A stretch of DNA of 64,000 nt, taken from assembly GCA_016212105.1 (NCBI GenBank), contig JACRHJ010000028.1, positions 11,689 to 75,688 on the forward strand, given 5' to 3'. Positions within the stretch are counted from its first letter, which is position 1. Each line of letters begins with the position of its first letter. The position numbers and the translations under genes are program-made. The notes under the pieces are model-generated. The model searched no databases. It had not been told where the DNA came from and saw nothing but the letters and a program-made list of their open reading frames with translations. Source of the DNA: Nitrospirota bacterium (GTDB lineage: Bacteria; Nitrospirota; JACRHJ01). Below are positions 16,598 to 19,035 of the stretch, piece by piece.

Positions 16598-16789
16598 ATG
16601 CCGATAAAAGAGATAGTAAAAGACAGCCGGAAATACGCGGGGCAGTACGTCGCCACGAAGTCCTTCAGGAGCAGGACCGTCGTGAGCCACGGAAAGGACC
16701 CGCTCGCCGTCTGGGACGACGCGGAGAAGAAGGGCGTCAAGGACCCGGTCGTGTTTTTCATACCGCGTTCTGATATGAAATTGCATTAG
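16598..16789 (+). CDS. small DUF5678-like protein
   Basis: 63 aa. The pattern YAGQYVA....VVSHGKDPLAVWDDAEKKGVKDPVVFFIP matches my recollection of DUF5678. A promoter-like element lies at 16531-16560. Confidence 0.6.
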   Translation: MPIKEIVKDSRKYAGQYVATKSFRSRTVVSHGKDPLAVWDDAEKKGVKDPVVFFIPRSDMKLH

Positions 16790-16929
16790 ACCCACCGAAT
16801 CTTAATAAGTCCGACAATAAGACAATTTGGCGAGATAGAACCAACGGTAGCTCGTAATCGGGATGCAATATTGACGCGCTGTCGGCTATAATGTATTCTT
16901 GTAGTTAACTTACTGGTAAATCTCCTACT

Positions 16930-17379
16930 ATGAGCGCAGAGTATAATCCGCTACTTACACCTGGCTTTCACGATATTCCAACCGATGATCTGGAGCAAGT
17001 TTTCGTCGCGCCTTTTCCCGACCCGACTCATAGGAGCTATTTGGTAGAACGATTGAAAGTTCTTTTATCAATAGTGAACGATGTTGGCATTGCTTTTGAA
17101 ATATGGATAGACGGATCATTTACAACCGAAAAACCCCAACCATCTGACATAGACATAGCTTTCTTTTTCGACCCACAAGAAGTTAACGATTTGCCAAAGG
17201 ACAAATTGGACATTTTAATGGACGTGTTTTCAAATCCCACGCAGACAAAGTATAGGTATAAATGCGATGTTTATTTTGTACCCAACAACGCAATAAATGA
17301 TCGTAGTTATTGGCGTGGTTGGTTTGGCTTTTCAAGAAATGAGCAGCCAAAGGGAATCGCTAGAATCATACTGAATTAA
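16930..17379 (+). CDS. minimal Pol-beta-fold nucleotidyltransferase (DUF6932-like)
   Basis: 149 aa in the AT-rich island. The NTase signature hG[GS]-x9-DxD is present as WIDGSFTTEKPQPSDIDIAFF. A third acidic residue is in YKCDVYFV. The N-terminal TPGFHDIPTDDLEQVF and C-terminal KGIARI resemble small stand-alone NTases. The DUF6932 label is from memory. Confidence 0.75.
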   Translation: MSAEYNPLLTPGFHDIPTDDLEQVFVAPFPDPTHRSYLVERLKVLLSIVNDVGIAFEIWIDGSFTTEKPQPSDIDIAFFFDPQEVNDLPKDKLDILMDVFSNPTQTKYRYKCDVYFVPNNAINDRSYWRGWFGFSRNEQPKGIARIILN

Positions 17380-17394
17380 GGCACCGGTAATAAC

Positions 17395-18327
17395 ATGAAT
17401 ATAATAGAAAAACTTAATAACCAAATCGTAGCCGCTAATGATATGTTAGCTCGTTACGAAACCGTTCTTGATAAAGAGCCCAAGAATATTGCGTATCAAC
17501 TAAGCGCTATTAGTGTCAAAAGTCACATTTCGGAACTACAGCATCAGTTGCAGCGCGAAAAGATTCTTCGAGAAAAAGAAGTATTGGAGATACGCTTAAA
17601 AGGAGTAACTGCTAACGGAAGCATACCCCTGTCCGTGTTATCCGAATTGTCACTTTACCTATCCGATGCATTACAGGCAACTTCTCAGAAAGTGAAAACT
17701 GGGTTAGATGCAAAGAGACGAATATTGAAAGATATTGTTAATACCCTTGACCTAAGACTTGCTGGTTTAGCTACAGGTTCGACTCGTTTAATAATTACGG
17801 GTAACTCCTCACCAGATCTATTCGGACAAAGTCTTTTAGAAAGCAGTCTAGAGAATACCTTTGCATTATTAGAATCTCGTTCTGCTGAAGAATTAACAGA
17901 AGGTGTTTCTAAAGTTGGTATACGTAGCGCGAATAAGTTTAACAAATTCCTAAAAACAATTTCCGATTCTGGTTATGAAGTTGACATTTCATGGGTATCG
18001 CCTACGAAACATGAATATGATTGGAAAGCCAGCATGGATGATATACGTAGTCTATCTAATTCTCTGGACAGTATAACAATGTCTCAGAACGAAATTTTCG
18101 AATTTAAAGGTAAATTAGTTATGGCTAGCTTAAAAGGCGCCTTTGAGATAGAGACCGACGCCGAAGAAACAATAAAGGGGAAATTCCCAACACAATTAAC
18201 AGAGTATGTCAAAAAGCTTCATATCGGAGATAAGTGCAACGGTATGATAGAAAAGGAAACGATTACTAATCGAACCACGGGACTTGAAAAAGTATACTAT
18301 ACATTGCTTGAAATAGAAGCCATCTAA
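17395..18327 (+). CDS. hypothetical protein, partner of the NTase (no recognisable domain)
   Basis: 310 aa, starting 15 nt after the NTase stop, with the same AT-rich composition. The N-terminal 65 aa or so are heptad-like and Q/E/L-rich. No TM helices, no P-loop and no Rx4-6H motif were found. Confidence 0.75.
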   Translation: MNIIEKLNNQIVAANDMLARYETVLDKEPKNIAYQLSAISVKSHISELQHQLQREKILREKEVLEIRLKGVTANGSIPLSVLSELSLYLSDALQATSQKVKTGLDAKRRILKDIVNTLDLRLAGLATGSTRLIITGNSSPDLFGQSLLESSLENTFALLESRSAEELTEGVSKVGIRSANKFNKFLKTISDSGYEVDISWVSPTKHEYDWKASMDDIRSLSNSLDSITMSQNEIFEFKGKLVMASLKGAFEIETDAEETIKGKFPTQLTEYVKKLHIGDKCNGMIEKETITNRTTGLEKVYYTLLEIEAI

Positions 18328-18372
18328 TTCCTGGCCTGTTTTAACATTCCGGGAATCAAAACCACGCAGACC

Positions 18373-18398
18373 AAAATGGCCGCCCTCCCGGGCGGCCA
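18373..18398. repeat. 26-nt hairpin AAAATGGCCGCCCTCCCGGGCGGCCA, copy 1 (terminator-like, downstream of hicA and of the island operon)
   Basis: Identical to 18982..19007. The stem is ATGGCCGCCC/GGGCGGCCAT with loop TCCC. A T-run follows on the minus strand. Confidence 0.85.
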
Positions 18399-18895: not shown

Positions 18896-18981
18896 TACAA
18901 CCTCCAGAATTAAAGCCTGCCTGTATGTTAAGCCATACCGGAAACTTTTTCAACCAAAATGTAGTTGATAGCCAGCGCACA

Positions 18982-19007
18982 AAAATGGCCGCCCTCCCGG
19001 GCGGCCA
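18982..19007. repeat. 26-nt hairpin AAAATGGCCGCCCTCCCGGGCGGCCA, copy 2 (terminator-like, downstream of the SnoaL-like gene)
   Basis: Identical to 18373..18398 and in the same orientation. TTTTT follows on the minus strand. Confidence 0.85.
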
Positions 19008-19035
19008 TCCACACAAGCAACAACCAAATTCAACT

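Follow-up and report, generated by a model that had tools for sequence, protein, structure and literature searches.

In a 64,000-nucleotide stretch of a Nitrospirota bacterium genome (NCBI GenBank assembly GCA_016212105.1, contig JACRHJ010000028.1, positions 11,689 to 75,688 of the forward strand; hereafter the window), an open reading frame (ORF) at positions 17395-18327 encodes a 310-residue protein, P0001. We find that P0001 is a new member of a catalogued, uncharacterised candidate defence family, PDC-M63B. The main new observation is the modular architecture of this family. Its members open with a helical hairpin that is tied to a minimal nucleotidyltransferase (NTase) of the DUF6932 family, and the core that follows the hairpin in P0001 recurs behind another head. 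The two genes and the parts of the protein discussed below are placed as follows in the window.

16930..17379, + strand: PDC-M63A, the 149-residue DUF6932 minimal pol-beta-type nucleotidyltransferase P0002, assigned by Pfam and PADLOC.
17395..18327 including the stop codon, + strand: PDC-M63B, the 310-residue protein P0001, with an ATG start, a PADLOC match and a family of 1505 representatives.
17395..17574, + strand: residues 1-60, predicted antiparallel helical hairpin (helices 3-27 and 32-59 in the model).
17575..18072, + strand: residues 61-226, predicted ferredoxin-like alpha/beta domain with a helical insert (domain model).
17779..17781, + strand: Ser129 codon TCG, in the turn between strands 2 and 3; invariant, and kept in DUF6575-headed relatives.
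18073..18324, + strand: residues 227-310, predicted OB-fold beta barrel like single-stranded-DNA-binding (SSB) proteins (VIA-align, Foldseek).

P0001 had been taken for an orphan in the initial annotation, a view that did not survive profile searching. The protein matched the PADLOC PDC-M63B profile PDLC04747 almost end to end (E 4.3e-90, residues 1-307 on positions 1-308 of 309), as well as five further PADLOC models of PDC-M63B (six in all) and phrog_6603 (2e-49); both genes of the cassette fall in PHROG families of unknown function. A word-seeded search returned only ten relatives, with 40-57% identity. The profile made from these ten was searched against 1.84 billion cluster representatives (50% clusters) and retrieved 1505, 615 and 204 representatives at E<=1e-3, <=1e-10 and <=1e-30, respectively. 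With few exceptions these were proteins of about 305-320 residues that matched end to end. The family is large. A search for longer fused forms (595-2000 residues) gave none that scored, which is weak evidence. The ORF itself is real, with its ATG start correctly placed, because homologues align from residue 1.

Scanning P0001 with Pfam and NCBIfam gave no family above its cut-off, in agreement with the initial statement that the protein has no recognisable motif. Two matches below cut-off, SUKH_5 (E 5.6e-5) and ABC-3C CTD3 (E 0.026), were attributed to chance, being present in 1/134 and 0/134 family members, respectively. Sequence searches against solved structures returned no match for either P0001 or P0002. 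The nearest named look-alikes in the ESM Atlas were DUF6575 clusters (scores 0.87-0.88, leads only).

The upstream gene ends 15 nucleotides before the start codon of P0001, on the same strand. Its product, P0002, matched Pfam DUF6932 (E 4.8e-33) and PADLOC PDC-M63A (E 1.6e-56), with active-site residues G62-S63, D73, D75 and D113. The Pfam models Polbeta and NTP_transf_2 matched below their cut-offs, and DUF1814 gave no match. The window therefore contains a PDC-M63 cassette, with a PDC-M63A gene adjoining and co-oriented with PDC-M63B.

This pairing was followed from both sides. Searching with the B profile gave 15 loci from Nitrospirota, Ignavibacteriota, Desulfobacterota, Bacteroidota and Gammaproteobacteria, 13 of which had upstream DNA; a DUF6932 gene lay directly upstream in all 13, on the same strand and with its end only a few bases from the B start. 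When loci were anchored on the NTase instead, the downstream same-strand ORF opened with a P0001-type hairpin in 80/80 cases. These loci added Acidobacteriota, candidate phyla radiation groups, Clostridia, Planctomycetota, Verrucomicrobiota, Myxococcota and others, so that the pairing is seen across at least 12 phyla. The commonest junctions among the 80 were overlaps of 4 nucleotides (28 loci) and 8 nucleotides (13 loci). The catalytic residues of the NTase (GS, DxD and a third Asp) were invariant in 14 sequences and 98% conserved in 81. Pairing is thus obligate and translationally coupled, and the initial suggestion that P0001 is the dedicated partner of the upstream NTase holds. No third gene recurred among the nearest flanking genes, which were heterogeneous: a few restriction-modification (RM) methylase or specificity genes, helix-turn-helix (HTH), phage and transposase genes, with mostly housekeeping genes as immediate bacterial neighbours.

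Several loci departed from the usual arrangement. At L035:185-1935 (minus strand), the DUF6932 gene overlaps by 4 nucleotides the gene of a 425-residue protein that combines an Xre-type HTH with a peptidase domain of the ImmA/IrrE M78 kind. Its N-terminus looks hairpin-like, but the match is not significant (P 0.0086, probability 4.7%), and a hairpin was not established there. Apparent frameshifts split B and left A whole at L060:3450-4407 (the same locus as L014) and L045:3444-4216, in a Salinisphaera genome and an Ignavibacteriae metagenome-assembled genome (MAG). At L115:3001-3436, in Alcanivorax nanhaiticus, A was split and B whole. These split genes could be real decay or assembly errors.

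The whole-protein model of P0001, built with 11 sequences, had a mean predicted local distance difference test score (pLDDT) of 87.4 and a predicted template modelling score (pTM) of 0.84. Residues 61-226 modelled separately with 134 sequences reached a pLDDT of 96.4 and a pTM of 0.90. In these models the protein is composed of three unlike domains: a helical hairpin, a ferredoxin-like domain and an OB fold. The heptad-like head of about 65 residues recognised in the initial annotation corresponds to the antiparallel two-helix hairpin. Compared with the Protein Data Bank by VIA-align, this region gave generic helical-hairpin matches, the best being the coiled-coil arm of FemA (Z 10.0 over 60 residues).

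Residues 61-226 are predicted to follow the order strand-helix-strand-strand-helix, helical insert, two strands and helix, which corresponds to a ferredoxin-like sandwich. In a comparison with 48,161 solved chains, Z did not exceed 5.5, the top rows were all generic ferredoxin-like folds, and Foldseek TM-scores were <=0.29. The domain is therefore described as ferredoxin-like, without a specific solved relative. Adenylyl-cyclase rows aligned with a root mean square deviation (rmsd) of about 10 Å, and kinship to palm or cyclase domains is not claimed. The C-terminal domain was modelled as a five-stranded OB barrel. Its 84 residues superpose on Rim1, SSB and PriB with Z 8.6-9.5 (for residues 231-310 in VIA-align: Rim1 SSB 9.5, rmsd 2.0 over 75 residues; M. 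leprae SSB 9.2; PriB 8.6; SilB/CusF 8.9), whereas no sequence-family match to these proteins was obtained. Foldseek retrieved CusF, SSB, IF1 and the N-domain of LysRS with E-values between about 6e-3 and 3e-2. Because the metal-binding OB folds of CusF and SilB score about as well as SSB proteins, the fold does not define the ligand of this domain.

The initial annotation had also described three similar segments after the head and read them as an internally repeated beta-rich fold. Segments 1 (residues 64-81) and 2 (residues 118-136) do resemble each other weakly: in profile-profile alignment they matched over 26 columns (P 0.0047, HH probability 7.5%), with the consensuses kEVielRLxG..GSiPL and ldLRLagl.GSTrL. 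Segment 3 matched neither of them in the same comparison. In the models, segments 1 and 2 both belong to a single ferredoxin-like sheet, as its strands 1 and 2, and each closes in a Gly-Ser turn, followed by a helix in one case and by a strand in the other; segment 3 sits in the separate OB barrel. The LRLxG-x3-4-GS likeness of the first two segments is real and family-wide, but it is no repeated fold, and the models show three different domains. With a likeness so faint, a third segment without a match, unlike modelled domains and a family of this size, an orphan built from a coiled coil and a threefold internally repeated fold is hardly credible, the family-wide motif of segments 1 and 2 being what speaks for it.

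Conservation was evaluated on 141 members with 23-45% identity to P0001. Ser129 was the sole invariant residue (100% in these 141 and in 134 sequences). Residues E62, G75, P78, L79, G128, D141, G144, S146, G175, W200, W210 and G239 were 85-99% conserved, and all except G239 belong to the ferredoxin-like domain. The hairpin consensus contains no invariant Ser, Thr or Tyr. Judging from topology only, Ser129, Glu62, Asp141 and Ser146 may cluster and form a candidate active or ligand site.

The hairpin accompanies the NTase whatever payload follows. Among 80 DUF6932 loci, the ferredoxin-like and OB core followed the hairpin in about 60. At 12 loci, all from Bacteroidota, the hairpin opened a protein of about 855 residues with ResIII, Helicase_C and EcoEI_R_C domains; the payload consisted of tetratricopeptide repeats (TPR) at 3 loci and was an OB fold alone, in proteins of about 133 residues, at 2 loci. 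In the 855-residue helicase, 340-residue TPR and 133-residue OB-only partners, the hairpin was the only region matched by P0001.

The helicase partners are exemplified by L092:3461-6040, L107:3453-6020 and L099:3450-6029, with 9 more loci in Bacteroidota. They are HsdR-like and keep a NEATSTD motif after the hairpin; the arrangement resembles a minimal NTase combined with an R-subunit-like protein of type I restriction. The OB-only partners (133-135 residues) are encoded at L074:3441-3848 and L084:3441-3842, and TPR partners (336-345 residues) at L075:3465-4502 and L041:3454-4464.

By profile comparison, the ferredoxin-like and OB core is in turn portable between heads. The relevant known system is PD-T4-10 of E. 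coli, an abortive-infection defence against T-even phages in which B is toxic and A neutralises it (Vassallo et al. 2022, PMC9519451). In one genome (G155), a protein without the hairpin, and without the NTase beside it, aligned through its residues 191-441 with residues 55-310 of P0001 (HH probability 97%, E 8e-11). It retains E62, GS129, the PDLFGxS motif and W200. It carries a DUF6575-like head (Pfam E 4e-5; positions 12-121 of PD-T4-10_B at E 0.1), and the gene upstream of it matches PD-T4-10_A (E 1.3e-6). This PD-T4-10A-like gene was kept in 15/15 relatives of the locus. The best structural match of P0001 in BFVD was likewise a 370-residue DUF6575 protein (E 1e-15). Hairpin with NTase on one side, and DUF6575-like head with PD-T4-10A-like protein on the other, thus form two heads, each tied to its own small partner and each followed by interchangeable tails. 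The P0001 core is one of these tails.

The loci of the G155 type (L022:770-2277 and L119-L133) come from Nitrospirales, Latescibacterota, Verrucomicrobiota and Planctomycetota MAGs, and their first gene encodes 125 residues. As the annotated long ORF overlaps this first gene by about 200 nucleotides, the true start of the second gene is probably near the stop of the first, giving about 377-399 residues. At L032:1028-2706, a PD-T4-10A-like gene precedes the gene of a 428-residue protein with a DUF6575-like head and a weak REase_II region (PADLOC, E 4e-4). The tail behind the DUF6575-like head therefore varies too, and a restriction-endonuclease-like tail there fits the C-terminal position as an effector slot. 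Homology of the P0001 core was rejected both to the protein of L032 and to the C-terminal domain of true PD-T4-10B, the latter compared through 77 homologues.

At the family level, the cassette does not differ from PDC-M63 as defined by PADLOC: both window genes match its models along their whole length, and their order and common strand are those of PDC-M63. The family itself is a computational candidate, and the one published deletion is negative. PDC systems are untested candidates, picked for their location within BREX, DISARM or type I RM loci (bioRxiv 10.1101/2024.01.29.577857). In the literature searched, we found no mechanism or domain description for PDC-M63, which was named in a single paper, and no mention of DUF6932.

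Like PDC-M63, PD-T4-10 is a two-gene operon whose small first gene overlaps a larger second one, and the ferredoxin-like and OB core of P0001 is present in the subclass that has a PD-T4-10A-like first gene and, on the second, a DUF6575-like head. In contrast to PD-T4-10, P0001 has a helical hairpin in place of the DUF6575-like head (no DUF6575 match in Pfam), P0002 matches PDC-M63A models only and is unrelated to PD-T4-10A, and true PD-T4-10B ends in another domain, unrelated to the P0001 core. The type VII toxin-antitoxin (TA) system MntA-HepT, in which MntA nucleotidylylates HepT, also has a minimal pol-beta NTase with GS...DxD encoded just upstream of its partner, and the contact region of the partner is helical, as the hairpin contact would be in PDC-M63. 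However, P0001 has no HEPN match in Pfam, its hairpin consensus lacks the Rx4-6H motif, and P0002 scores 15.8 bits on NCBIfam MntA_antitoxin (cut-off 60), through the catalytic motif only. A HEPN_AbiU2 match in 1/134 family members (E 0.005) is at chance level. P0002 also differs from the NTases of AbiE and MenAT, as it is not of the DUF1814 type.

The pair is also carried by temperate phages. In mEpX1 (Escherichia) and vB_EhrS_59 (Erwinia), the stretch between cI and N contains a DUF6932 gene and a gene for a 310-residue homologue of P0001 (27-28% identity), immediately downstream of cI and co-oriented with it; no other Pfam family was found in the pair. This slot just downstream of cI is the position of rexAB in lambda, and the likeness is positional only. 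The mEpX1 version was present in 18/5426 complete E. coli genomes, where the two genes are annotated as 'DUF6932 family protein' and 'hypothetical protein'.

Very probably, P0001 is the dedicated partner of the NTase, and the pair forms a mobile conflict or TA-like module organised in the domains described above. The best explanation overall, to which we would give even chances, is a mobile TA-like abortive-infection module in which the hairpin couples a nucleic-acid-directed core to the NTase. PDC-M63AB would then be a self-contained, horizontally mobile two-gene module. The hairpin would be the interface by which the NTase binds or controls PDC-M63B, and the core would be the working payload, most likely directed at single-stranded nucleic acid that the OB fold binds. 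The pair would most likely provide TA-like abortive infection, with B as a growth-arresting effector and the upstream NTase as its neutraliser. This polarity, for which we put the chances a little below even, is proposed because of the analogy with PD-T4-10, where B is the toxin and A the antitoxin, and with MntA-HepT. An effector role of B is also suggested by the gene order, by the occurrence of the core in relatives of the PD-T4-10 pair, whose B protein is toxic, and by the invariant Ser and conserved acidic residues.

Several results weigh against this explanation. Deleting PDC-M63AB from E. coli NILS69 left infectivity unchanged for 10/10 phages (bioRxiv 10.1101/2024.12.20.629700). The P0001 core and the C-terminal domain of true PD-T4-10B align with an HH probability of 0.8%, and P0002 is not homologous to PD-T4-10A-like proteins (hhalign probability 0.06%). 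Because the C-terminal domain and the first genes are unrelated, the PD-T4-10 analogy rests on an architecture shared in one subclass. The middle domain has no catalytic fold recognisable by Foldseek or VIA-align. The alternative payloads (TPR, OB alone, helicase) look more sensor-like than toxin-like, which would favour the opposite polarity. Finally, the pattern of gene decay, with B split in L045 and L060 and A split in L115, does not discriminate between the two polarities.

With the polarity reversed, the DUF6932 NTase would be the effector, adding nucleotides to tRNA or other nucleic-acid ends in the manner of MenT or AbiEii. The 310-residue protein would be a sensor, specificity or antitoxin subunit, docking via its hairpin while the OB fold recognises phage single-stranded nucleic acid or presents the substrate. 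MenT and AbiEii are established NTase toxins, and here the enzyme is the constant element, with conserved catalytic residues, its partners carrying swappable binding-type modules (OB, TPR, superfamily 2 helicase). The coupling of one DUF6932 gene to an Xre-HTH and ImmA/IrrE M78 protein, typically a regulator, and the FemA coiled-coil arm as top match of the hairpin point the same way. However, P0002 belongs to DUF6932 and not to DUF1814, and the hairpin matches only generic helical hairpins. Moreover, a small gene placed first and overlapping a larger one is the usual antitoxin-then-toxin order, as in PD-T4-10, where the second protein is indeed the toxin; the core recurs without the NTase in PD-T4-10-like pairs, with a DUF6575-like head on the second protein, and its invariant Ser and conserved acidic positions suggest an activity of its own. 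We consider this alternative somewhat unlikely. In a broader reading, to which we give a rather low probability, DUF6932 and the hairpin form a general chassis, the hairpin being a short tag that recruits a minimal NTase to interchangeable payloads (the ferredoxin-like and OB core, OB alone, an HsdR-like helicase or TPR). Nucleotidylylation, or the completion of a composite active site, would then be the means by which the NTase turns these payloads on or off. The ferredoxin-like domain, with its invariant Ser, would represent a new effector directed at nucleic acids, which the DUF6575-headed subclass would have in common with PDC-M63.

The pair might also have no defence or TA role and be an accessory of prophages or mobile elements, acting in lysogeny control or in DNA-end or RNA processing with the OB fold as cofactor of the NTase. 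The sole published test gave no defence phenotype, two temperate phages carry the pair next to cI, and its immediate bacterial neighbours are mostly housekeeping genes. Yet the PDC candidates were picked by PADLOC inside BREX, DISARM or type I RM loci (bioRxiv 10.1101/2024.01.29.577857), payload swaps of the HsdR-like or restriction-like kind, and a relationship to PD-T4-10-like pairs, are what conflict systems typically show, and the distribution is sporadic, the GC content foreign and the cassette located beside hicAB. Such an accessory role is improbable.

PDC-M63, one of many catalogued defence candidates, is now split into testable parts: a hairpin always found with the DUF6932 enzyme, and a portable core that combines a single invariant serine with an SSB-like OB fold. 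This core links PDC-M63 to a subclass related to a validated abortive-infection TA system. If the hairpin is indeed a recruitment tag for a minimal NTase, several otherwise unrelated gene pairs, including those with HsdR-like helicase and TPR partners, would come under one rule. The practical result for this genome is modest.

In this genome the cassette is a recently acquired two-gene accessory module next to hicAB. Its mobility is deduced from its guanine-cytosine (GC) content of 38.5%, against about 60-65% in the rest of the window and about 63% in the genome, from the single copy of PDC-M63B, and from its occurrence in 3/300 other sampled genomes of the phylum and 0/11 of the same family (counts from samples of each group, not exhaustive searches). 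No recognisable prophage surrounds the cassette, and a search for direct repeats or att-like sites flanking the island gave none that was convincing. A convergent hicA/hicB pair adjoins it downstream and a DUF5678 gene upstream (Pfam scan). Two further sites border the cassette.

16871..16899, + strand: promoter-like TTGACG-17-TATTCT, 31 nucleotides 5' of the NTase start codon (consensus scan).
18376..18398, no strand assigned: GC-rich hairpin, terminator-like on the minus strand, 49 nucleotides past the PDC-M63B stop; a second lies at 18986-19008, beyond hicBA.

The promoter-like site is a pattern match only, from a scan that gave fewer sites than shuffled sequence. The GC-rich hairpin is contained in 29-nucleotide copies at 18370-18398 and 18979-19007, which are 97% identical and bracket hicB-hicA, the first of them starting 43 nucleotides past the PDC-M63B stop. 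The hairpin at 18376..18398 may end the + strand operon as well. Upstream, the 63-residue DUF5678 gene (window 16598-16789, Pfam E 3e-9) has native GC content, and its end marks where the low-GC cassette starts.

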